64,000 nt of DNA from Candidatus Latescibacterota bacterium (lineage in GTDB: Bacteria > Latescibacterota > UBA2968 > UBA8231): positions 1,088,001-1,152,000 of the forward strand of contig CBDCXV010000010.1 in NCBI GenBank assembly GCA_965223905.1. The letters run 5' to 3'. The translations under genes were made by a program, and so were the position numbers. The notes under the pieces were generated by a model, which saw only the letters and a list, made by a program, of their open reading frames with translations, made no database searches and was not told the origin of the DNA. Below are positions 1 through 20,197 of the stretch, piece after piece; positions within the stretch are counted from its first letter, which is position 1, and every line of letters begins with the position of its first letter.

Positions 1-344
1 TCCATAGCGCCCAGTGCACGAGAAATGGTGGCCACATCGGGTAGACGACGTAACCCCAGCAGCCGCTGCACCAAGGGGTCGTCGCGGTAGTAGTCCACGT
101 CCCGCAAGCGCCGGAAGCCCAGCAGCAGATGGACGATGACTACCAAGACGATGCGATGCGGCCCAAAGATGGGGAAGCCCTTCAGGTGCTGGAAGCACTG
201 CTTCAGTCGGGCCTTCAGATCCAGACGCTGGAATAGCGCCACAAAGACAATCACGCCAGCAAACGATGTGAGCTGCTGATCTTCGAATCGGATAACCGGC
301 ATCTTGTGAAAACGGGCCAGAATTGCTTGTTTGCTGAACTTCAC
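1..344 (-). CDS. IS1380-family transposase, N-terminal part (not in ORF track)
   Basis: Hand translation from GTG 344 (AGGAGG SD upstream): VKFSKQAILARFHKMPVIRFEDQQLTSFAGVIVFVALFQRLDLKARLKQCF...HLLLGFRRLRDVDYYRDDPLVQRLLGLRRLPDVATISR. It is collinear with ORF 19102..20142. Confidence 0.9.
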   Translation of the reverse strand, partial: MKFSKQAILARFHKMPVIRFEDQQLTSFAGVIVFVALFQRLDLKARLKQCFQHLKGFPIFGPHRIVLVVIVHLLLGFRRLRDVDYYRDDPLVQRLLGLRRLPDVATISRALGAM

Positions 345-474
345 TTTTGGTGCCCTCCTGGATTGAGGGGGTTGGTGTCTTCGCTAACACCATAGATCCC
401 CATTCTTCAGAGGCACCGCAAGTGACAATGCGGCAGTTCATTCCCTCACATCCGCAATTCTTATGCAACTATGG
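1..474 (-). mobile_element. IS1380-family element, transposase-5' end only (runs off window start)
   Basis: The transposase N-terminus aligns with the IS at 18641-20197. The terminal motif TTATGCAAC-TATGG (461-474) resembles TTATGCAAC-CAGAGGG at the end of the second copy. The exact end is uncertain by a few bp. Confidence 0.85.
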
Positions 475-585
475 AGTGAAATCAGCAAGAACGGCCCCGT
501 CAAGGTAGGTTCGTCAGAATCAAGCGCTGTTGCCTCGTCTGCTGCTGTGCAGGCTGCTACAGGAACTCCCCAGACCTATGGCTGA
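475..585 (+). pseudogene. 3' remnant of an IS-interrupted gene ending in a C-terminal Gly (probable metallo-beta-lactamase partner of the E2-E1-JAB)
   Basis: Open frame directly after the IS end: EISKNGPVKVGSSESSAVASSAAVQAATGTPQTYG*. Its TAT GGC TGA overlaps the ATG (578) of the next gene. The identity of the full protein is inferred from context only. Confidence 0.6.
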
Positions 586-2923
586 TGATCTCCATACGTC
601 AAATCAAAAAATAGAGGAGCCCGCCAATCTCAGCCCTGCGATAAATGAAGCAATTCTTGATCTGAAGAAAGCATTTTCAGATCAAACCATTGATGCACTT
701 TCTTGGAATAAGCACTACATAGCCATACCGCTTGATGTAGCGGTTGATTTGCCCGCCCGTGGCCCGGTTGGCTCCTTAGATATTCAAAAGCGAGAGCCGA
801 TCTACTTACTCCTCCATCGCCAACACTATCCTCATAAGGCACCCTCAGCCTGGTCCAACCGCAAGAATTTTCCTGCATCCATGTTGCCCCACCTGAACCC
901 AACATCACCGGGAATGGCAGCCAACTTCTGCCTTCACCGGGGCAATTTTGATAACTGGTTCGCAGAACACACCATCGTTGATGTCGTCCAACGGATTCGT
1001 AGTTGGCTACGTGACGCAGCCCGTGACCGGCTGATTCGCAAAGAAGGTGGATTTGAGTTTACCCGCATTTCAGATACGCTTGGCTATACCATCTATGAAC
1101 CATCCGCCTTAACCGAGGTGGTCTATAAAACATGGCGCCAAAACAAGGGAACAGCAGGCTTTTGTTTCTTGTGGTACGACCTGCTGAAAAATCCGAGCAA
1201 AGACCCCCTCATCGCCAAGGATACCTACGCCATACGCCTGGCGTGCTCACTCCTTAGCGAAGACACTGCAAAGCCACGTGAAGTCAGCTTGAAACTCAAT
1301 GGCTTTCACTCAGAGGACAACAAACTGGAACGCATGCTCTTTGGAGTGTTGGCATGGCCTAGCAAGAGGCAGGTCTGCGGGAGATACTTCACAGAACTGC
1401 CTGATACGCTCCGTGCCTTCGTGGAGTGGGGTAAAAGCTTCGGCATTCCAACAAGAACCGCCTTGCAGACCTATCTGTCCAAAGACCTCCAGCTATTGGG
1501 CGGCGTCCCGGTCACAGTCGTCATCCCCAGACCTCAACGAGTTATTGGGTCCAGCTCTCGGCTTGAACTTTTGAATTTCACAGTCAACGCAGCTGGTGAC
1601 CACTGGCCCGAGGATGGAGAATGGAATCTTGATGCAAAGGTCACAAGTATAGGGCACCGAGTCCCTCTCACAGTCCGAAGGGCACGCGATATCTCCTCTC
1701 AACCAGAGGATGTGGACTTCGGTCGCCTACTGTTTCTTGGGTGTGGTGCTGTCGGCTCAAAGCTGGCCCTTCACTTGGCCAAGAGCGGACAGCCGAACAT
1801 GACCTTAGCTGATTACGATGAGCTGTCGCCACATAACCTGGTCAGGCACGGTCTGCTGCACGAAAGCACCGGGAGGAACAAAGCTGAAGCCGTCAAAGAA
1901 GCTATACAAGGGATATTTTACGCGGACAAATCAGTAAAGGTTGACACATACAAATCTTCTGCTTTAGACCTATTTCTCGGCCAGAATCAGAGCATCCTAA
2001 AAGCTCACAAATGGATTATTGATGCCACTGCTTCTTCAATGATGCTGAATGCGTTGAGCCAGGCTAAGATTCCCGATACTCTCGCCTGCTGTCGCTGCGA
2101 AATAGCAGACCATGGCCAACTCGGTTTCTTGAGCGTAGAGGGTGCCAACCGGAACCCGCGACTTGATGACCTTCAGATAATCCTCTTTGATATGGCGCTC
2201 AAGCATCCTCTGCTGTCACAATGGCTCCAAGAAAACAAAGAACAGCGTGAACAGCAAATTGGTTCCGCGCTTGAGGAAATTAACATTGGCATTAGCTGTA
2301 GTTCCGAAACTATGCGCCTTTCAGATGAACTTGTATCACTGCACGCTGCTTCGTTTGCCACTGGTTTCCGTAGTTGTGCGAAGAAAGGAATACCGAACAG
2401 CGCAGGCAGAATACAAGTTAGTGAGTATTGCGAAAAAGGACAATTGACCAGTATTGTCCAGCACTACGATGTTGGGGCAATGACGGTCGTCTCCGCCCGT
2501 AATGATCCATCGTGGCAAGTGCGCCTCAAACATGGTCTTGTAGCAAAAATGCAAATTCTACTCCGCCATGCTAAGCCAAACGAGACAGGCGGCCTTTTAA
2601 TCGGCATGGTCCATTTCAAACGCAAGACTGTTTATATCACCCGTGTTTTGCCTGCACCTGCAGACAGTGTATCCAGCCCTTACGCATTTGTGCGTGGCAT
2701 TCAAGATCTCCCGGAAACCGTATACAAGATTCAAAACCTCACTGGTGGAATGCTCGGTTATGTAGGAGAATGGCACACACATCCAGACGGAGGACCAAAC
2801 TTGAGCTTGACAGACAGAGAAGCAGTTGAGAAAGTTAAATCAAACTTGGATAGCATTCCTCTGCCCACGCACGTAATGATTGTTACAGCCCGTGGCATTT
2901 ATCCCCATATTTTCACTCCCTGA
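578..2923 (+). CDS. Prokaryotic E2 - ThiF/E1 - JAB peptidase fusion (Cap2+Cap3-like; 6A-MBL/Pycsar/CBASS-type ubiquitin-like machinery)
   Basis: E2-like YPxxAP...FP...PHLN...FCL with Cys; E1 GCGAVGS, DYDELSPHNLVRH and a distal GISCSS Cys; JAB ETGGLLIG...YVGEWHTHP...S..D. ATG 578 is preferred over TTG 530. Confidence 0.9.
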   Translation: MADDLHTSNQKIEEPANLSPAINEAILDLKKAFSDQTIDALSWNKHYIAIPLDVAVDLPARGPVGSLDIQKREPIYLLLHRQHYPHKAPSAWSNRKNFPASMLPHLNPTSPGMAANFCLHRGNFDNWFAEHTIVDVVQRIRSWLRDAARDRLIRKEGGFEFTRISDTLGYTIYEPSALTEVVYKTWRQNKGTAGFCFLWYDLLKNPSKDPLIAKDTYAIRLACSLLSEDTAKPREVSLKLNGFHSEDNKLERMLFGVLAWPSKRQVCGRYFTELPDTLRAFVEWGKSFGIPTRTALQTYLSKDLQLLGGVPVTVVIPRPQRVIGSSSRLELLNFTVNAAGDHWPEDGEWNLDAKVTSIGHRVPLTVRRARDISSQPEDVDFGRLLFLGCGAVGSKLALHLAKSGQPNMTLADYDELSPHNLVRHGLLHESTGRNKAEAVKEAIQGIFYADKSVKVDTYKSSALDLFLGQNQSILKAHKWIIDATASSMMLNALSQAKIPDTLACCRCEIADHGQLGFLSVEGANRNPRLDDLQIILFDMALKHPLLSQWLQENKEQREQQIGSALEEINIGISCSSETMRLSDELVSLHAASFATGFRSCAKKGIPNSAGRIQVSEYCEKGQLTSIVQHYDVGAMTVVSARNDPSWQVRLKHGLVAKMQILLRHAKPNETGGLLIGMVHFKRKTVYITRVLPAPADSVSSPYAFVRGIQDLPETVYKIQNLTGGMLGYVGEWHTHPDGGPNLSLTDREAVEKVKSNLDSIPLPTHVMIVTARGIYPHIFTP

Positions 2924-2945
2924 CATAAATCGTATCGCAAGCATT

Positions 2946-3599
2946 ATGAAAAAACTTGATATCTACCAAACGCTCGCTGTCTTCATGCCGGGCTACTTTT
3001 TTGCTTTTGGCTCCTACATACTTCTGCACAGGCTTGGTGTTGCCATGCCATTTGAGATTTCGTCTATCGGCGGCAGCATTGCCTTGATTGTTATGGCCTA
3101 CGTCATCGGGCAACTGGTCCAAGTAGTTGGTAATGCTTTTGAGTGGCTATGGCGCAAAGTGCGCCCTGTACCTTCGGTGAGAATTCAAAAAGGAGATGAA
3201 AAGATTCTGACCTCACATCAACGTCAGCAACTCATTGACGCTATGAAGCAAAAGGTTGGCTTGCCCGACGGTGATGTCTCCAAACTACCCCGAAGCGAAT
3301 GGTTTTCATACGTAGGTTCAGTGGCCTCAGCAGTCCGTCAAGCAAAGCAAATGGAACAGGTGGATATCTTCAGTGCGCACTGTGGAATGTTTAGAGGACT
3401 CGTGGCCGCAAGTTTTCTCCTCGCTCTCGGCTCGTGGCTCCTTTTGGGAGAACAATGGCACCTGCCTGTTGCTACACTTATTGTGCTTGGTCTTCTTGCG
3501 CTCTACCGAATGGACCGCTTTGATAAGAATTACGCCAGAGAGTTGGTCCGACAGTTTCTGCAAATTGCAAGACAGGAAAACACAGACCAGAAGGACTAG
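2946..3599 (+). CDS. Four-transmembrane protein, putative defence effector
   Basis: Two N-terminal and two C-terminal hydrophobic helices around a soluble loop. It starts 22 nt after the JAB gene on the same strand. Confidence 0.75.
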   Translation: MKKLDIYQTLAVFMPGYFFAFGSYILLHRLGVAMPFEISSIGGSIALIVMAYVIGQLVQVVGNAFEWLWRKVRPVPSVRIQKGDEKILTSHQRQQLIDAMKQKVGLPDGDVSKLPRSEWFSYVGSVASAVRQAKQMEQVDIFSAHCGMFRGLVAASFLLALGSWLLLGEQWHLPVATLIVLGLLALYRMDRFDKNYARELVRQFLQIARQENTDQKD

Positions 3600-3629
3600 G
3601 GAATTAGCGAAAGATCGGAATTTTAGGTC

Positions 3630-3902
3630 CTATAACTCAATCCGCACGATCAGCTTGCCATCCAAACTCTCGTCCCGCAAATATCCTTCTTCCTCTAATT
3701 GCTCCAGCCAGCGTTTTAGTTCCACTACAGACACGCTGATTTCTTCGGCTATACGCTGAAAAGATGCCCGGTAATAGCCGGTTTTGGGGTTCATCCGGGT
3801 GAGAATGTAAAGGTAAAACCACAAGGCCTGTCCTTGCTGTTCAAAGTCCTGCAGGAACTTCCTTGGCCAGGTCCTGGAGTAAATTGTCAGTTGCTCTGCC
3901 AT
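3630..3902 (-). CDS. Small winged-HTH DNA-binding protein
   Basis: SFQRIAEEISVSVVELKRWLEQLEEEGYL is an HTH/wing pattern; 90 aa. Confidence 0.65.
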   Translation of the reverse strand: MAEQLTIYSRTWPRKFLQDFEQQGQALWFYLYILTRMNPKTGYYRASFQRIAEEISVSVVELKRWLEQLEEEGYLRDESLDGKLIVRIEL

Positions 3903-4012
3903 CTATCTCTACCATAGCAGATAGACGACGCAAGGGAACTGGGGCAGAGTTGCTCGGGCAGACGCGATGGGTCAGTCGCTTTATGCACCTATATTTGTGC
4001 TCCGACGCCGTT

Positions 4013-4041
4013 TTGAATACAGTCTGCGACTTCGGTATGAT
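4013..4041 (+). promoter_or_regulatory. Sigma70-type promoter
   Basis: TTGAAT-N17-TATGAT upstream of the AAGGAG RBS and ATG 4105. Confidence 0.55.
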
Positions 4042-4104
4042 ACTTCAGAGCCACCGACAGTGCGGTACGTCCATAGTCGCCAATTCCAAGGAGCTTCTAT
4101 CAAG

Positions 4105-4527
4105 ATGCCAGATATCTCAACCGTCCTAAAACAAGAAATCACTCGCCTCGCAAAAAAAGAGCTCAAACCAATTGCTGGAAGCCAGTCAAAACAAATTCAA
4201 GCTTTGAAAGCCACGGTTAGAGATTTGAAAGGCCAAATCGCTGCCATACAGAAATCTCTCACTAATGCTGCTACTCCTCAACCGTCACCGCCAGAGCAAG
4301 AAGATGAACAAGGAGCAATCCGCATCAGTCCAACGTCAATCAAGAAACACAGAAAACGCCTCCGACTTTCCCAGGCTCAATTGGGAAAGTTACTCGGAGT
4401 CAGCACTACTACCATCGTCTTCTGGGAAACTGGGAGGTCCTCTCCAAGTGGGACGAACAGGGAGCATATCGCCGAGTTGAGAGAAATGGGATTGCGGGAA
4501 GCAAAATCACTTTTAGAAACCATTTGA
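4105..4527 (+). CDS. XRE-family HTH regulator with N-terminal coiled coil
   Basis: N-terminus MPDISTVLKQEITRLAKKE; Cro/C1 HTH RKRLRLSQAQLGKLLGVSTTTIVFWETGRSSP; RBS supports a start at 4105. Confidence 0.85.
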   Translation: MPDISTVLKQEITRLAKKELKPIAGSQSKQIQALKATVRDLKGQIAAIQKSLTNAATPQPSPPEQEDEQGAIRISPTSIKKHRKRLRLSQAQLGKLLGVSTTTIVFWETGRSSPSGTNREHIAELREMGLREAKSLLETI

Positions 4528-4774: not shown

Positions 4775-5461
4775 TCACACCTTGCTCGTCTTTGCCGATT
4801 GAGCCTTCGCATTTTGAACTCTTCTCTCGTTCCGCTTTTCGTACTCCAGACGCAACTGTTCATCCCGAGAAGGAAGATCATGATATATCTGCTGCGTAGC
4901 ATCACATATTTCTAATAATCCATGAACACGATCAAATCTCTTGGATGGACCATTTTCCCTCCAACAGCTTGGAGGGCCAAAATCACTCAAAAGCTCATTG
5001 CCCGTTAGAATCAAAACAGGATTAAGAGGGCGCTCACTCTTCCAGCGTTTCCTTCCAGCTTTGGCAATCCGAGTGATCTCCCGTAATTCCCGCTTATTTA
5101 ACTCTTTCCGCAGCGTGCAGAACGCAAGCACGGCTCCAGGAAACCTCTTCCCAATAGTTCGCATCCGCACAAAGTCCTTTTGCTCAAATGTGTCAAAGGT
5201 TTTGCACTCCCCAAAAATCACGCCTTCAGCAACACTTCCGAACAAAGATTCCTGCCACAAAATCCCGAAGTCTGCTTCCAATTTCTTGCCTTGCTCACCG
5301 TTGGCAATAAAACAATACGATGGCGTTACCTGTAGGCTATGCAATCGGCAAAGGAACTCCACGGCTAGCAGTACACAATATCCGCCATCAGCATGTCCGG
5401 GAATACTGAACGGTCCAGCTGTCTTGTAGTACCACACATTGCTTGAGCTAGTCCGAGACCC
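4775..5461 (-). pseudogene. C-terminal fragment of a protein with a PD-(D/E)xK-like nuclease motif
   Basis: EADF...IFGECKTF motif. There is no convincing start or RBS, and the frame closes at about 5462, next to the integrase fragment. Confidence 0.5.
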
Positions 5462-5477
5462 TCAAGCTCAACATTGA

Positions 5478-5936
5478 GTGATGGATTCAGTGGATCATTT
5501 GTTTCCCAGCCGCATGCGCATCGTCCGCAACCTCTGCCTGTATCGACAGAGGACGGAGCCACACTGCTTCATCCCAGACCTAGAGTTGTTCCCGCGCCCC
5601 CGTGCTCCGCGCCGTCCCTACGTCTTCAGCGAGCAGGATATGGTGCGGCTCCTGCATCACGCCGAGGACCTTGGTTCAAGCTCAAACTCACCGCTACGGG
5701 CCGAGGTTTATCGTCTCGCACTCGTCCTACTCTACACGGCCGGTCTGCGACGAGGCGAGCTCGTGCGCCTGACACTCTCCGACTACGATGCCGCGCAGCA
5801 AACCCTTCACATTCGGACCACCAAGTTCCACAAATCTCGGCTCGTGCCCCTGTCTCGCGACGCCGACCACGAGATGGACGCCTACCTCGAAGCACGTCGA
5901 CGGTTGCCGCACGGTCCGGATGCCCCTCTGCTGTAG
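5478..5936 (+). pseudogene. Internal fragment of a RIT-type tyrosine recombinase (RitB-like)
   Basis: PYVFSEQD...LLYTAGLRRGEL...IRTTKFHKSRLVPL. It lacks the HxxR and catalytic Tyr region and ends at a junction. Confidence 0.85.
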
Positions 5937-8418: not shown

Positions 8419-10257
8419 TCAGTCGTTTTGGAGCGACCGACCCCTCACCCAGTCCCGACTGTACCAATTTGCCTGCTCCCTCCACATACGTGCATACATG
8501 CCGTCGAGTGCCAGCAACTCTGCGTGGGTGCCTTGCTCGACAAGACGCCCTTCGTCGAGTACTACGATGCGGTCGGCCAAACGGGCTGAACCGAGGCGGT
8601 GCGAAACGAGCAGGGCTACAGAACCTACTGCCAGCCGGGCAAACCGCTTAAAGACGTCTGCTTCTGCCAGAGGGTCGAGGGAAGCGGTGGGTTCGTCGAG
8701 CACCACAACGGAAGCCTCCCTCATGTATGACCGAGCGATCGCGACCCGTTGCCACTCTCCGCCGGATAAGTCCGTGCCCTCGGCGAACTCTCTACCCAGC
8801 ATTGCGTCAAAGTCTCCGAGCCGCGTCAACAACTCACCTGCCCCACCCCTGCGAGCTGCCTCCTTCAGCGATTGATCTTCATCCAGTAGCTTCAGATTAC
8901 CAAAACCGATGTTGTGTCGCACCGAGAGGTGATATCTCATGAAATCCTGAAAAACTGACGATGTGTCCGCTCGCATGGACCTAGGATCCATCAAGTTGAG
9001 GGGCACACCGTCAATCTTAATTTCGCCCCCTGTCGGTTGGTACAACCCAAGCATCAGACGGACCATCGTACTCTTGCCCGCTCCGTTCGGGCCAACCAAC
9101 GCGATGGTTTCACCAGGCCCAATGCAGAAAGACACACCATCGAGGGCTGGATTGCTTTGACCGGGATAGGTGAAGCCGACGTCTTTCACCACGATTCCTC
9201 GAGTTCGACCGGCCGTTTTGGCGATTCCTCCCTTCTCTTCTTCATACGGTAGATCCAAAAACTGCAACAAATCCGCAAACCGGAGCACGCGTTCGTACTG
9301 CTGGCCAGACTGCGTCAACAACTCGGTCAGCGCGGTTTGGAAGCGACGTAACGTCTCGAACAACGCAACAAAAGCCGACACCTCCAACGCGCCGTTGACC
9401 GTTAACCAGATTCCAAAGGAAAGCGCCCCCACAAAACCAACATGCGATCCGCTATCAATGACTGCGCGACTCCTGCCCTGGCGATCGGCCAGCGCGACGC
9501 GGCAGTTCGCCAAAGGGCGAGCAAGCTGATACCACCTCTCCCGGAGATATTCACCTATCTGGAACAGTCGTATCTCCTTGGCGGCAGCGCGATCGGTCTG
9601 CAGTCGACTGAGATACTCGGACAGACGCGTGTTTTGGATCTGTTCCTTGTACAGCGAATATCGGCGCCGGCCATGCCGTAATCGGTTGAACATGATCGGC
9701 AGTCCGGCGACGACGACAGCGAGCAGTAAACGAATATCGTAGGAAATTAGGATACCAGCCAGAGACATCAGAATCAAAACGCCTTTCCAACTCTCGGCCA
9801 GTCGGATCATCATCATGATGAAGTCGCCGCTGTTTATGGAACGGCGCGCACTCACCAACAGATCAAAAAACTGAGGATCCTCGAAACGCTCCAACCTCAG
9901 TGCTTGGCTCTTCTCCATGAGCCGCTTTTGCAGCTGCCGCCGGAACTCCTCCTGCGAAAACGAATTGATCCAGATGTGCAACTGAAGCAAAAGCGACTCA
10001 AGCCCCTGGACTGCTGCTAGTAAGACGATCCAAGCCACAAGAGCCTTTAGCGGAGACGCGCCGAGGACGACGTTCTCAGCCACTCCGGTTGTCCGCTCTA
10101 GCACCCAAACGCCAGCGGATGGCAAGATCCCCAGCAATACCATATTCAACACGGTTACACTGCCGATAACGGGCACTGACCGTACGAGCATGACAAGCAG
10201 GGTCAGGCTCAAACGAAACATCGACAGCCATTTGCCTCCCCGCGTCTGCCCGTTCAC
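8419..10257 (-). CDS. ABC exporter, fused permease/ATPase (half 2)
   Basis: TM domain with AAKEIRLF; Walker A GPNGAGKS; signature LSGGEWQ; Walker B VVVLDE. A GTG start overlaps the upstream stop. Confidence 0.92.
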   Translation of the reverse strand: MNGQTRGGKWLSMFRLSLTLLVMLVRSVPVIGSVTVLNMVLLGILPSAGVWVLERTTGVAENVVLGASPLKALVAWIVLLAAVQGLESLLLQLHIWINSFSQEEFRRQLQKRLMEKSQALRLERFEDPQFFDLLVSARRSINSGDFIMMMIRLAESWKGVLILMSLAGILISYDIRLLLAVVVAGLPIMFNRLRHGRRRYSLYKEQIQNTRLSEYLSRLQTDRAAAKEIRLFQIGEYLRERWYQLARPLANCRVALADRQGRSRAVIDSGSHVGFVGALSFGIWLTVNGALEVSAFVALFETLRRFQTALTELLTQSGQQYERVLRFADLLQFLDLPYEEEKGGIAKTAGRTRGIVVKDVGFTYPGQSNPALDGVSFCIGPGETIALVGPNGAGKSTMVRLMLGLYQPTGGEIKIDGVPLNLMDPRSMRADTSSVFQDFMRYHLSVRHNIGFGNLKLLDEDQSLKEAARRGGAGELLTRLGDFDAMLGREFAEGTDLSGGEWQRVAIARSYMREASVVVLDEPTASLDPLAEADVFKRFARLAVGSVALLVSHRLGSARLADRIVVLDEGRLVEQGTHAELLALDGMYARMWREQANWYSRDWVRGRSLQND

Positions 10258-12326
10258 CGGTACCACTCCGCCTGAGTGTTGTACATCTCCCAGTACCTTC
10301 CTCTATCCACCATGAGCTCATCGTGGGTGCCCTGTTCAATTACTCGACCGCCCTCCATGAGGAATATCTGGTCAACAAACCTCGCAGATCCGAGACGGTG
10401 TGAGATGAGGAGTGTCGTCCTCCCTCTCGCGGCCGATTCGAACTGTCTGTACACATTCGCTTCTGCCATCGGATCAAGGGCAGAGGTTGGTTCGTCCAAT
10501 ATCATCACTTGTGGATCCCGCATGAAAGCACGGGCAATGGCGGTTCGCTGCCATTCTCCGCTCGACAGTTCGATCCCCCCATCGAAGGTCCTCCCAAGTG
10601 GAGTCTCGTATTTCTCTGCAAACCTCTCAACGACGCCGGCTATGCCGGCACGGACCGCGGACTGACGGACGCGCTCCACATTCTGAATGTCATCGACCAT
10701 TCCAAGGCCGATCACTTCCCTGACGGGGAGTTCGTACTTCACAAAATCCTGAAAAACGGCTCCAATGATTTTGCGAAGGCTGTGCCGGTCGATCTCGTGG
10801 ATTGGCGTCCCGTCAAACAGAATTTCGCCCGTTCCCAACGGATACAGACCGCATATCAACTTCGCCAACGTGGTCTTCCCGCAGCCGTTCTTGCCGACGA
10901 GAGCAGCAGACGTCCCGGCAGGGATTTCCATATCCAGGCCCTTTATTATCGGTTCCGCTGTTCCCGGATAGGAGAAGTGTAGGTTATTCACGCATATCCC
11001 TTGCTTCAGTGGGCCCGCGACACTTGTCAAGCCGATGCCCTTCGTAGGACTGCCCGGTAGCCAGTCATCGCCGACCGCCTCGCTCTTTCGGGCATCGGGG
11101 ATTGCGCTTTTGCCGCCAATTGGGATCTCACCCCTGTTCGCCTCTGCAAGGTCGTCATTGCGCAGAAAGTCCAGAACATATTGCACCTGCTCTCCGTTTT
11201 CCAAGCCCCAATAAAGGGCGTCTGCAGCTGCGCGCTGGGAATCAAAGTAATGATTTAGAGCCATGATCAGCGCTACGAACACCCCCAAAGTCACCTCGCC
11301 GTCGCCAAGAGACTGGGCGATGAACACGACCGCGCCAAAAACGAAAAGACGCTGAAAGATCGTCACCATCATGCCGAGCTTGAGATGATAGCCCTGCAGT
11401 GCCAAACGTTCTCGCGCCAATTCGCCGAAGAGCCTATCCCACCATCCAACTATGTAGGCTCCCAGCCCAAAGAGGCGGATCTCCTTGGCGGCCTCCCTCC
11501 CGAATAGCAACCCGCCGAGATAGTCGAGCCGACGGGTCGTCTCAGTCCGCTGAAAGAAAAGTGTGTTGACAGACGTCACTTCGGAAATTCTCAACAAAAA
11601 TGAGGGCACAAGCCAGGCGCAAGCGACGAGTCCCAGCACGGGCACATAAGCCCAAATCATCACGATCATGGTGAAGAGCGTTACGAGTTGGGTGCCCGAG
11701 CGCGTGAGATTCGACCAAAACCCAGTCACTGTGCTGACCGCGTTCCGAGCCCGCGTTATGGCGTCATGCACCGCCGCCTGCTCAAGGCTGATCAGATCTA
11801 CCTGCTCTGAACGTTCCAAAACCAGCCGCAAGACTTCGACGCGACCCCGTTCAAAGAGCCGCGCGAACGCGACCTCATGCAATACTCCCACAAGATGTCC
11901 AAGAAGCAGCCCGACCCCAAGGGCGCTCACCCACGGCAAGGCCCTCATGAAGCCATCCTCGACACCCGTGGCAAGCACATCGATCAGCTGCCTGCTCAGC
12001 CATATGGTGACCGCTGGCACTAGCCCACTCACCACCGTTGTACCGATGTAACACACGACAACAAAGGGATGAAGCGACCAGTGGAGGCCAACCGTAAATC
12101 GAAGCCACATGCCTAGATCGCTAGCGCTCTCTTGTGCGATCTTGATGCCGCCAAACAGGTAGCGCCACAGCGCAAGGAATATCCCGATGTCTTCTTGGCG
12201 GAAGGCTATATTGTGTCTCTCCGTCCGGGTCACTCCAACACTCCACAATCGGTTGGTGAAATCCTTACGCAAGGCGGGTTTCTTGCGCTCAACGCCAGGA
12301 TCACCCGCCAATAGGCACACAACCAA
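10254..12326 (-). CDS. ABC exporter, fused permease/ATPase (half 1)
   Basis: AAKEIRLF; Walker A GKNGCGKT; signature LSSGEWQ; MILDEPT. The true start probably lies downstream of 12326 (about 12233 or 12108). Confidence 0.9.
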   Translation of the reverse strand: MVVCLLAGDPGVERKKPALRKDFTNRLWSVGVTRTERHNIAFRQEDIGIFLALWRYLFGGIKIAQESASDLGMWLRFTVGLHWSLHPFVVVCYIGTTVVSGLVPAVTIWLSRQLIDVLATGVEDGFMRALPWVSALGVGLLLGHLVGVLHEVAFARLFERGRVEVLRLVLERSEQVDLISLEQAAVHDAITRARNAVSTVTGFWSNLTRSGTQLVTLFTMIVMIWAYVPVLGLVACAWLVPSFLLRISEVTSVNTLFFQRTETTRRLDYLGGLLFGREAAKEIRLFGLGAYIVGWWDRLFGELARERLALQGYHLKLGMMVTIFQRLFVFGAVVFIAQSLGDGEVTLGVFVALIMALNHYFDSQRAAADALYWGLENGEQVQYVLDFLRNDDLAEANRGEIPIGGKSAIPDARKSEAVGDDWLPGSPTKGIGLTSVAGPLKQGICVNNLHFSYPGTAEPIIKGLDMEIPAGTSAALVGKNGCGKTTLAKLICGLYPLGTGEILFDGTPIHEIDRHSLRKIIGAVFQDFVKYELPVREVIGLGMVDDIQNVERVRQSAVRAGIAGVVERFAEKYETPLGRTFDGGIELSSGEWQRTAIARAFMRDPQVMILDEPTSALDPMAEANVYRQFESAARGRTTLLISHRLGSARFVDQIFLMEGGRVIEQGTHDELMVDRGRYWEMYNTQAEWYR

Positions 12327-18564: not shown

Positions 18565-18640
18565 TAGCTTGTGGTCCCCCCCCGTGCATGGTCAGCGTTA
18601 TCGACATCAACGCCAAGATAAGGCATCGGCGGTAGCATTA

Positions 18641-20197
18641 CCCTAACGTTGCAAAAACCTGTTTGAACGAGTATGAGGCGGTTGTGATCAGGCCGCTTGC
18701 TTCAGTGTTTCGAGGAAATGCAACAGATCTTTTTGGGCTTTTGGGTTCGAGTTCATCGTCAGGGTCAACTCGCCCTTGGGCTGGGTGAGCCGGCCGGCGC
18801 GTTGGATGAAGCGATGACGCAAGGTGTCCAGGGTCTGGAAGGTCCACGGCGGCGGACGTTTGGCGCGCGAATAGGTCGAGCGCCCCTGGGTGAGCATCTG
18901 CATTTCGCGCCCCAGGTTGTGAGCCATCCTCGCACACAAGGTGACCATCTGGTTGCCGAGTACCCTTCGGGTGGGGATCAGGTCCAACCCGGCCTGCTGC
19001 TTGGCCTCGCCGAAGATCCCTTCCTGAGCGCCGCGGCCCCCGTGGAAGAGGACCACGTTGCCTGCCGAGGTCCTCTTGTTGGTGACCAGGACGCGGTAGT
19101 CCTAGTCGGTTTCGCGAGGTTGAAACAGATCCAGCTGCAAGGGCTCCTTGGTCTGACGCTTGACCGTACGGCGCACAAAGACAAACCGATACGTGGCCGG
19201 CCGGCTGGCCGGTTTCCACGCACTCTCGAAATAGGAGCGTTCCTCATCCAGATAGCGCCAGCGCTTGCGGGACTCGATTTTGTGCTTGAGTACGGGGAAG
19301 CGTTCGAACGGCACGCTGAGAGTGGATTCGACGCCATACAGGTCGAGGAGAGTGAGCGTGTGTTGGCTGAAGAAGGCGCTGTCCAGTCGAGCCTCGAGCA
19401 CGGTGTGGGGAAGAAGGGCGCGCACGCGATCGAAGGCGTCCATCATGAACTCATGAGCGCCCTTGCTGTCATGGACGTTGCCGGGACGGTGCAGGACATC
19501 GAGGAATTGCCCGGTTTGGGCCACGGTGCCGAACAGGTTGTAGTAGCTGCGCGCGCCCTTTCTTTTGGGGTTGTAGCCGACAGCGGTGCCTTCGGCATGA
19601 CCGCGCGTGGACACCACCGAGCCGTCGAAGTCGAGGGTCAGACGGGCAAAACGCTCACGCTGCAGGGCGTTCCTCACCAAGGTCGAGGACAGCTGCCGCA
19701 CCGTGGCAATATTCGAGGGCTTCAGGGTCGCCAGGGTGCGACTGACGGTGGCCACGTCGGGGAGACGACGCAGCCCCAACAAACGCCGCACGACCGGATC
19801 GTCCCGGTAATAGTCCACGTCTCGCAGGCGCCGGAAACCCAGCAACAGATGCACGATGAGCAGCAACACAATGACATGGGGGCCGAAGATGGCCGAGCTT
19901 TTCACGGGCCGGAAGCATGACTTCAACCGGGCCTTCAGATTCAGCCGTTGAAAGAGCACGAAAAAGACGATCGCTCCGGCAAAGGAAGTAAGCTGTTGAT
20001 CCTCGAAGCGAAGACGCGGGAGCTTGGGAAAACGGGCACAAATCGCTTGTCTGCTGTACTTCACTTGCGGTGTCCTCCTAGAATGGGAGTCGGGTATGTC
20101 TTTGTCAACATCATCGATACCCAATTTCCAGAGGTGCCGCAAGTGACCATGTGCCCGAACAGAAGGGAAATTAGCGCAGTTTTATGCAACCAGAGGG
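18641..20197 (-). mobile_element. Complete IS1380-family element with inverted repeats and target duplication
   Basis: Imperfect IRs CCCTAACGTTGCAAAAA and revcomp CCCTCTGGTTGCATAAA. ATTA is duplicated at 18637-18640 and 20198-20201. Confidence 0.9.
18688..20064 (-). pseudogene. IS1380 DDE transposase with an in-frame TAG
   Basis: LDFDGS, ARLDSAFF and RGAQEGIFGEAK motifs. ORFs 19102..20142 and 18688..19056 share a frame, separated by one TAG (19102-19104). GTG 20064 has an AGGAGG SD. Confidence 0.9.

Follow-up and report, generated by a model that had tools for sequence, protein, structure and literature searches.

The window analyzed here is a 64,000-nucleotide stretch of a Candidatus Latescibacterota genome (assembly GCA_965223905.1, contig CBDCXV010000010.1, positions 1,088,001 to 1,152,000 of the forward strand), and its positions 475 to 3,599, together with the sequence immediately upstream, very probably represent a ubiquitin-like anti-phage operon of the 6A-MBL type lying on a mobile island of low guanine-plus-cytosine (GC) content. 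The genes run in the order metallo-β-lactamase (MBL) fold protein, fusion of E2, E1, and JAB domains (cap2_3), and four-transmembrane-helix (4TM) protein of the Csx27 family, and the MBL gene has been split by an insertion sequence (IS). The system is assigned to 6A-MBL because both enzymes pass NCBIfam equivalog cut-offs and because in 43 of 80 related loci an MBL homologue directly precedes the fusion gene; the splitting of the MBL gene is recognized from the limits of the IS, from a 5-bp duplication, and from its two halves, which fit homologues without a seam. Judged by gene neighborhoods, the membrane protein is a component of the MBL and E2-E1-JAB system, and in the intact form it may act as the membrane partner of an MBL nuclease whose tail is conjugated by the fusion protein. 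Identity and mechanism taken together, this explanation is given a probability of about 0.55.

The fusion gene is uninterrupted in this genome. The open reading frame (ORF) at 530–2923 on the forward strand has its probable start at the ATG at position 578 and its stop codon at 2921–2923, which gives a cap2_3 gene at 578–2923 and a protein of 781 amino acids (aa). This protein scores 541 bits against the NCBIfam model NF058523 (6A-MBL_cap2_3, anti-phage 6A-MBL system cap2_3 protein; cut-off 320), and the Pfam domains Prok-E2_A, ThiF, and Prok-JAB follow each other along it in that order. The E2-like domain (731–1069; PF14457, E 2.1e-13) contains an invariant H105 and a catalytic-type cysteine, C118 (codon 929–931). 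The E1 adenylation core (1718–2041; PF00899, E 1.2e-15) contains G388-x-G390-x-x-G393, S394, D412, H419, R423, K435, and D482, and the E1 cysteine C574 (codon 2297–2299), an invariant column, lies 3′ of this core. Similarly, the JAB/JAMM metallopeptidase domain (2558–2863; PF14464, E 8.3e-10) contains E669, H733-x-H735, S743, and D746, all three domains being encoded on the forward strand, and the PADLOC JAB model matches the protein at E 1.2e-25. In an alignment of the window protein with 26 homologues of 20–59% identity (27 sequences), the window protein has the shared residue at every one of the 34 invariant columns, including the catalytic residues of E2, E1, and JAB. The preliminary description of this stretch, which was made from the letters alone, had proposed an intact fusion with an E2 cysteine, an E1 nucleotide motif and cysteine, and a JAB HxH..S..D motif, and this is borne out by the Pfam domains and the invariant columns. 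The closest solved protein to the fusion family profile in the PDB is Cap2 (7to3, E 7e-23) of CBASS, the system of anti-phage signaling based on cyclic oligonucleotides. A search of the genome found this one cap2_3 gene only and no second copy.

The gene preceding the fusion was followed out of the window in an 18-kb stretch (L003) that includes 14 kb of upstream sequence, with L003 position 14476 corresponding to window position 476. The N-terminal piece of the MBL gene, comprising its first 349 codons, lies outside the window at L003:11875–12921 on the forward strand, and the final 35 codons and the stop codon, encoding a flexible tail that ends in PQTYG, lie on the same strand at 478–585, as read from the translation of the frame and the alignment to five intact homologues. 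The TGA stop of the MBL gene overlaps the start of the fusion gene (ATGGCTGA). The ORF at L003:11875–12996 scores 389 bits against NF058524 (6A-MBL_enzyme, anti-phage 6A-MBL system MBL-fold protein; cut-off 220) and runs beyond codon 349 into the IS, the N-terminal codons ending 1.55 kb upstream of the tail codons across the insertion. The IS is an IS1380-like element of 1551 bp on the reverse strand (G000:C10:1086926–1088476, equal to L003:12926–14476). Its right-hand 476 bases occupy window positions 1–476 and include the beginning of the gene of the 458-aa DDE transposase, which opens at 344 and continues beyond the start of the window; the full transposase ORF, on the strand opposite to the MBL gene, matches Pfam DDE_Tnp_1_4 at E 1.4e-39. 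The ends of the element are 16-bp imperfect inverted repeats that match by eye at 12 of 16 positions, with a 9-bp exact core given by an aligner. A 5-bp target-site duplication (TGAAA) flanks the element, its right copy standing at 477–481 and its left copy, 1556 bases upstream, closing the N-terminal piece. Codons 350 and 351 of the MBL gene flank the insertion point, and the two pieces fit intact homologues without loss or overlap (residues 20–369 and then 370–404 of the L005 protein). The IS cuts the catalytic body of the MBL away from its Gly tail, and this genome therefore lacks an intact three-gene unit. Because of this split, and because the genome has no second cap2_3 gene, the 6A-MBL system is most likely disabled here. 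A related IS1380-like copy is found inside the window at 18640–20151 (G000:C10:1106640–1108151) and 15 others elsewhere in the genome, the further matches amounting to 16 full- or near-full-length copies of 73–77% identity plus shorter fragments.

The preliminary description had counted a Gly-tailed enzyme as the first member of a three-gene system at 475–3599. A Gly-tailed MBL gene does exist, but only its last 35 codons and stop codon fall inside that interval, with the IS between them and the rest. The same description had left two choices for the upstream gene, either an MBL or a cyclase, the latter making the locus a CBASS or a pyrimidine cyclase system for anti-phage resistance (Pycsar) with an unclassified 4TM effector. 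The 389-bit match to NF058524 settles this choice for the MBL; the CBASS/Pycsar reading is rejected, as the Gly-tailed gene encodes an MBL-fold protein and neither a cGAS/DncV-like nucleotidyltransferase (CD-NTase) nor a pyrimidine cyclase.

The place of the membrane protein in the system was surveyed by scanning genome contigs with the fusion protein, which gave 80 loci (43 with an MBL homologue directly upstream by tblastn), and by searching the 1637 ORFs of at least 90 aa in these loci with membrane-protein profiles. A Csx27-family 4TM protein is the third gene in 29 of the 43 loci with MBL and E2-E1-JAB, and in 25 of these 29 it is encoded directly downstream of the fusion gene on the same strand, with gaps of 5–162 nt; it is otherwise found directly upstream of the MBL gene (L006 and L038), convergent (L011), or 1.8 kb downstream (L030). 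The association of 4TM and E2-E1-JAB genes presumed in the preliminary description is thus what the neighborhoods contain. A patatin-like phospholipase takes the third position in seven loci (PF01734 at E ~1e-19 in L032 and L052, the other five grouped by blastp), and 4TM or patatin together account for 36 of the 43. The seven remaining loci have a CHAT-NB-ARC-TPR protein (one locus), a weak trypsin-like match (one), a protein of no recognized family (three; L019, L020, and L021), no ORF (one), or the end of the contig (one) at this position. Seven more 4TM matches occur in loci without a tblastn match to the MBL, and none occurs in the 30 loci that match the E1/JAB part only.

The reverse direction was covered by a search of 168 genomes from the phylum of the window with the membrane-protein profile, which matched 10 genomes, including the one analyzed here (G000). 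The 10 non-self 4TM loci found in this way comprise four trios of MBL, E2-E1-JAB, and 4TM genes and six loci with one or two MBL-fold genes and no E2-E1-JAB gene. An MBL-fold gene is present near the 4TM gene in all 10, either adjacent (within ~90 nt or overlapping; nine loci) or ~1.2 kb away (L104). The six loci without E2-E1-JAB include five with an adjacent MBL gene, and the sixth is L104, in which the 4TM match is weak. The MBLs of these E2-E1-JAB-less loci match the PADLOC model PDC-M48B, with E down to 3.7e-136. A second, tail-less MBL of the PDC-M48B type also stands beside a trio at L004:9139–10023, L041:8556–9431, L032/L033 ~9747–10583, and L044:2815–3726, and 6A-MBL and PDC-M48-type modules can be nested. 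The combination of MBL, E2-E1-JAB, and 4TM genes is also carried by archaeal metagenome-assembled genomes (Methanothrix/Methanosaeta and Methanobacteriota; L006, L007, and L008), with fusion proteins 45–49% identical to the window protein, and the system therefore crosses domains. On plasmids of Emticicia oligotrophica (NC_018742; L106) and Hymenobacter (L105), the fusion gene is labeled "ThiF family adenylyltransferase," and both the MBL gene and the third gene are labeled "hypothetical protein"; the Emticicia third gene (L106 5724–6437) falls in the 4TM family at E 6e-33.

No Pfam family was matched by the MBL protein. In the PDB, the best match of its family profile is the β-lactamase-like domain of ComEC (9ic4, E 4e-9), with a further match to 30bt (E 1.8e-7), and a Foldseek search with an AlphaFold2 model of the L004 homologue also gave 9ic4 as the best match (E 6.2e-12, template modeling score 0.72 normalized to the target). 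The motif H-x-D-x-D-H is invariant in the family alignment. Two defense MBLs, HamM and an MBL linked to Avs, are reported to be ComEC-like, Zn-dependent nucleases of double-stranded DNA that remain latent until they are cleaved (PMC12799240; bioRxiv 2025.11.14.688446). Because of the ComEC matches of profile and fold, the invariant motif, and the nuclease activity of these related defense proteins, the MBL of the 6A-MBL system is proposed to be a nuclease. A Gly residue is present at or near its C-terminus in 41 of the 43 loci, where it is the final residue in 17 and stands 1–4 residues from the end in 24, and the tails of the remaining two are not readable owing to merged ORFs. The tail motifs include P[QK]TYG, KSYG, APRAG, and I[IKST]QG, and in the model of the L004 protein (predicted local distance difference test score, pLDDT, 85.6), the last 22 residues have a pLDDT below 50, as in a disordered tail. 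The Gly tail is absent from 10 MBLs, namely eight belonging to seven modules without E2-E1-JAB and, from L004 and from L041, the second MBL of each locus. Across these sequences, the Gly tail appears to go with the presence of E2-E1-JAB, which is the distribution that would be expected if the tail were a substrate of E1, by analogy with cGAS in type II CBASS, for which the action of Cap2 and Cap3 has been described in a preprint by Ledvina et al. and by Jenson et al. (2023).

The gene of the membrane protein (2946–3599, forward strand) begins with an ATG 22 nt after the stop codon of the fusion gene at 2923 and encodes 217 aa, which by hydropathy form two helices, a cytoplasmic loop of ~85 aa, and two further helices. 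The hydrophobic segments are located at about residues 9–29, 41–63, 149–168, and 175–195, and the counts of Lys plus Arg in the N-terminus, loop 1, loop 2, loop 3, and C-terminus (2/0/13/0/4) fit a topology with both termini inside. The 22-nt gap and the four-helix membrane protein after it, as given in the preliminary description, agree with these coordinates and segments. The AlphaFold2 model of the 4TM protein (m8f14eab594ab) is all-helical with a pLDDT of 95.6, and residues 137–216 form one continuous helix of 80 residues. This single modeled helix joins hydrophobic segments 3 and 4 and the C-terminal amphipathic tail and conflicts with a simple four-pass hairpin; the model would be compatible with either three or four membrane passes.

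The window 4TM protein falls in no Pfam family, and its scores stay below the cut-off of every NCBIfam model. A word-indexed search with this protein gave four homologues only, and an exhaustive profile search with the family gave 4550 cluster representatives at E ≤0.001 and 2058 at ≤1e-10. The nearest ESM Atlas clusters are labeled "hypothetical protein" and are without a Pfam family. In a PADLOC scan of 148 members of the family, 61 match Csx27 (best 9.3e-15), 19 match the type VI-B-associated "tm_4," and one weakly matches PDC-M48A; through this transitive link, and with no direct strong match, the window protein would belong to the Csx27 family in the wide sense. Foldseek found nothing in the PDB for the 4TM model at E ≤0.001, a wide VIA-align search gave a best Z of 6.9, with all of its matches being long-helix ones inside the stated noise range for helical models, and a metagenome scan with alignment A3 gave no relatives. 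A complex prediction for the L004 MBL and 4TM proteins scored 0.00 without a verdict and is counted neither for nor against binding. As for a conserved acceptor lysine, no column of the alignment of 148 members has Lys in at least 40% of them. Position 146 of the window protein (codon 3381–3383), which lies in a Y-G-x-x-R motif preceding helix 3, is Cys and is Tyr in 98% of the 148 members, including the four closest homologues. Cys146 may be a further hint of decay and of relaxed selection after the IS insertion.

The locus resembles described 6A-MBL systems in having an E2-E1-JAB triple-module protein beside a specialized MBL-fold gene, both above the NCBIfam cut-offs, but differs in its IS-split MBL gene and in that its relatives carry a Csx27-family third gene in 29 of 43 cases. 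Two NCBIfam models named 6A-MBL came up, one for each enzyme, and the 4TM proteins are above the cut-off of none. By Iyer et al. (2006; PMC1779556), operon type 6a is described as "usually with two genes," which supports the two-gene description assumed at the outset. A review and a preprint either refer to van den Berg et al. (2024) for the anti-phage activity of 6A-MBL or name the system as a jumbo-phage defense. According to papers citing Makarova et al. (2019), Csx27 belongs to a four-helix family that is encoded together with natural-transformation and ubiquitin-system components, and a channel for single-stranded DNA (ssDNA) was proposed. To judge by these citing papers, the trio of Csx27-family protein, competence-type MBL, and ubiquitin fusion is already in print. 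Among the matches listed in a literature search, none joined Csx27 with MBL terms. The preliminary description had considered the operon an undescribed variant, a claim that does not stand beside the 61 of 148 relatives that match PADLOC Csx27 and the published link of the Csx27 family with ubiquitin components; the 4TM protein essentially matches something already named in this system (PADLOC Csx27; Makarova et al., 2019, as cited). The membrane protein is not a new component, and the locus is an ordinary, IS-disrupted example of 6A-MBL.

Like the wider Csx27 family, the membrane protein has ~200 aa, four predicted membrane helices, and the company of competence-type and ubiquitin-system genes. 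Unlike Csx27 proper, which is an accessory of type VI-B1 CRISPR-Cas13b, it falls below the curated CAS_Csx27 cut-off and is not encoded beside cas13b, there being no Cas13b-sized ORF above 800 aa within 9 kb on either side. Type II CBASS, which consists of a CD-NTase, the E1-E2 protein Cap2, the JAB protein Cap3, and an effector, is similar in that Cap2 is the closest solved relative of the fusion, in the Gly tail of the partner enzyme, and in a variable downstream position that can hold a membrane protein or a patatin phospholipase. However, the Gly-tailed enzyme is here an MBL-fold hydrolase instead of a nucleotide cyclase, and the counterparts of Cap2 and Cap3 are fused in one chain. To our knowledge, there is no second messenger known for 6A-MBL. 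PDC-M48, a PADLOC candidate made up of a small membrane protein (A) and an MBL-fold protein (B), likewise pairs a multi-pass protein with a ComEC-like MBL, but MBLs of the PDC-M48B type are without the Gly tail and E2-E1-JAB is lacking. In addition, the window 4TM protein has no PDC-M48A match at E ≤0.01 in PADLOC, and tblastn found no gene of the PDC-M48B type in the window. ComEC, HamM, and the Avs-linked MBL share the MBL subtype and H-x-D-x-D-H with the present family, whose best profile and fold matches are to ComEC. In ComEC, however, the membrane part is not a separate small protein as it is here, and the 4TM protein is unrelated to the ComEC channel domain, whereas the protease-activated defense MBLs (HamM and Avs-linked) have a trypsin-like protease in the place of the E1/E2/JAB regulator.

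For the intact form of the system, it is tentatively proposed, by analogy throughout and at somewhat less than even odds, that the MBL is a DNase effector, that JAB, E1, and E2 conjugate its tail, and that the Csx27-family protein is the membrane partner of the nuclease. In this scheme, the MBL would be a metal-dependent DNase and itself the effector. The JAB domain would trim the 0–4 residues beyond the tail Gly and would also undo conjugates, and E1 would adenylate the exposed Gly, which would then pass from a thioester at C574 to C118 and be ligated to a target. The nuclease might in this way be primed or localized, as cGAS is by Cap2 and Cap3 in type II CBASS. The Csx27-family protein would dock or activate the nuclease at the inner membrane, the site of phage DNA entry, a step that can be likened to ComEC, where a membrane channel and the same MBL domain are parts of one polypeptide. 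The role of membrane partner is suggested mainly because the 4TM protein constantly pairs with MBL-fold genes, with or without E2-E1-JAB.

Several observations weigh against this explanation. The match of the window 4TM protein itself to the named family is weak, with 13.3 bits against NCBIfam CAS_Csx27 (cut-off 65) and E 1.9e-4 against PADLOC Csx27. The membrane proteins of the surveyed loci are split by blastp into two clusters, and the link between these is moderate: hhalign gives a probability of 45% and E 2e-4, bringing the loop and its flanking helices 2 and 3 into register, and a deep 4TM profile finds members of the second cluster at E ~1e-5 and no unrelated matches. Csx27 proper has been reported as a Cas13b repressor, which suggests no obvious role in docking a nuclease. 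Furthermore, the presence of patatin in the third position at seven of the 43 loci is typical of interchangeable killing modules, and such a swap fits a membrane effector better than a dock. This last point is the best argument for the mechanism put forward in the preliminary description, in which the Csx27-family protein is the killing effector, forming a pore or depolarizing the membrane in abortive infection and being switched on by conjugation of the MBL or of itself. Patatin would then fill the same gene position as CapV in CBASS, the occurrence of 4TM or patatin in 36 of 43 loci would follow the same logic, and Csx28, another accessory membrane protein of type VI-B, is reported to form pores. 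A killing effector of this kind is nevertheless rather unlikely: the ComEC-like nuclease would then have no clear role, no route is known by which an MBL hydrolase could pass a signal to a membrane protein, none of the alignment columns of the 148 family members has a conserved Lys, and the 4TM protein also pairs with MBL-fold genes that have neither Gly tail nor E2-E1-JAB. Because of these tail-less partners, conjugation would not be the general trigger of the 4TM protein.

The closeness of the MBL to the ComEC nuclease domain could also be explained by a ubiquitin-regulated device for DNA uptake and degradation akin to natural competence, with the 4TM protein as ssDNA channel and defense at most as a side effect, a hypothesis that later papers credit to Makarova et al. 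(2019). This is quite improbable, since 6A-MBL is listed as an experimentally supported anti-phage system and is so named in NCBIfam, the locus is part of a low-GC mobile island that also holds AbiGi-like remnants, and the MBL is without a signal peptide-like start and must meet cytoplasmic E1 and E2 enzymes. Finally, the 4TM gene might stand outside the 6A-MBL operon as the remnant of a neighboring module of membrane protein and MBL (PDC-M48) that tends to sit alongside it. The genes after the fusion in L041 match PDC-M48A (E 4.6e-65) and PDC-M48B (E 3.3e-147), and in L004 an MBL of the PDC-M48B type follows the 4TM gene. Such a separate module is very improbable, however, because a second MBL accompanies only three of the 29 4TM loci (L004, L041, and L044) and is absent from the window, because in 25 loci the 4TM gene follows the fusion gene on its own strand after 5–162 nt, and because the window protein does not match PDC-M48A.

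A wider scheme can also be drawn, which is possible at somewhat less than even odds. In this scheme, 6A-MBL would be a three-part system that requires a Csx27-family protein or a patatin and would form the conjugation-regulated "type II" of a much larger, unrecognized class of defense systems combining a membrane protein with a ComEC-like nuclease. PDC-M48 would be the "type I" of this class, and the Csx27 accessory protein of type VI-B CRISPR would have been recruited from it. The locus itself is of little significance: the system is already described, and this copy of it is broken and sits on a mobile island in decay. The value of the survey may lie in the two thirds of related loci that have a Csx27-family gene without an NCBIfam model above cut-off and the further sixth that have a patatin gene. 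The existence of forms with 4TM and MBL and without E2-E1-JAB (PDC-M48), in which tail-less MBLs are the partners of this membrane family, is also of interest. If the pattern holds, constructs for tests of 6A-MBL should contain the third gene, and the poorly understood CRISPR accessory Csx27 would be connected to a nuclease-tied family of 4550 cluster representatives.

The low-GC island that carries the operon extends over ~12 kb (G000:C10 ~1081500–1093500), starting ~6.5 kb before the window and ending near window position 5500. Its GC content is 0.43–0.55 outside the IS and 0.55–0.62 in the IS, and that of the flanks is 0.57–0.71 in the 7.5 kb upstream of the island and 0.53–0.66 in the 10.5 kb of the window downstream. 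This contrast, together with the IS, a serine recombinase, split AbiGi-like ORFs, and an integrase fragment, confirms the AT-richer island with mobile debris noted in the preliminary description. The serine recombinase (569 aa; Resolvase, Recombinase, and Zn_ribbon_recom; L003:9859–11568, forward strand) is encoded at the island's head, upstream of the MBL gene, and is likely the island integrase. On the reverse strand, ~4.5–5.3 kb upstream of the window, two adjoining ORFs (L003:8750–9142 and 9143–9463) match the Pfam AbiGi family, the first in its C-terminal part (E 1e-3) and the second in its N-terminal part (E 9.5e-8), and look like the two parts of an abortive-infection gene broken by a frameshift or a stop codon. 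A promoter and terminator scan of positions 400–4200 gave counts no higher than in shuffles, and no tRNA gene was found in the 18-kb L003, which covers the left edge of the island and ends ~1.5 kb before the right edge. Downstream of the operon, a 220-aa ORF on the reverse strand (4775–5437) shows a D...E-x-K-like pattern by eye and has no match in Pfam or PADLOC (E ≤0.01) or in NCBIfam (E ≤0.1). The right edge of the island, where GC climbs from 0.48 to 0.62, carries a tyrosine recombinase fragment of 152 aa (5478–5936, forward strand) that covers positions 4–86 of the 172 positions of the Phage_integrase profile.

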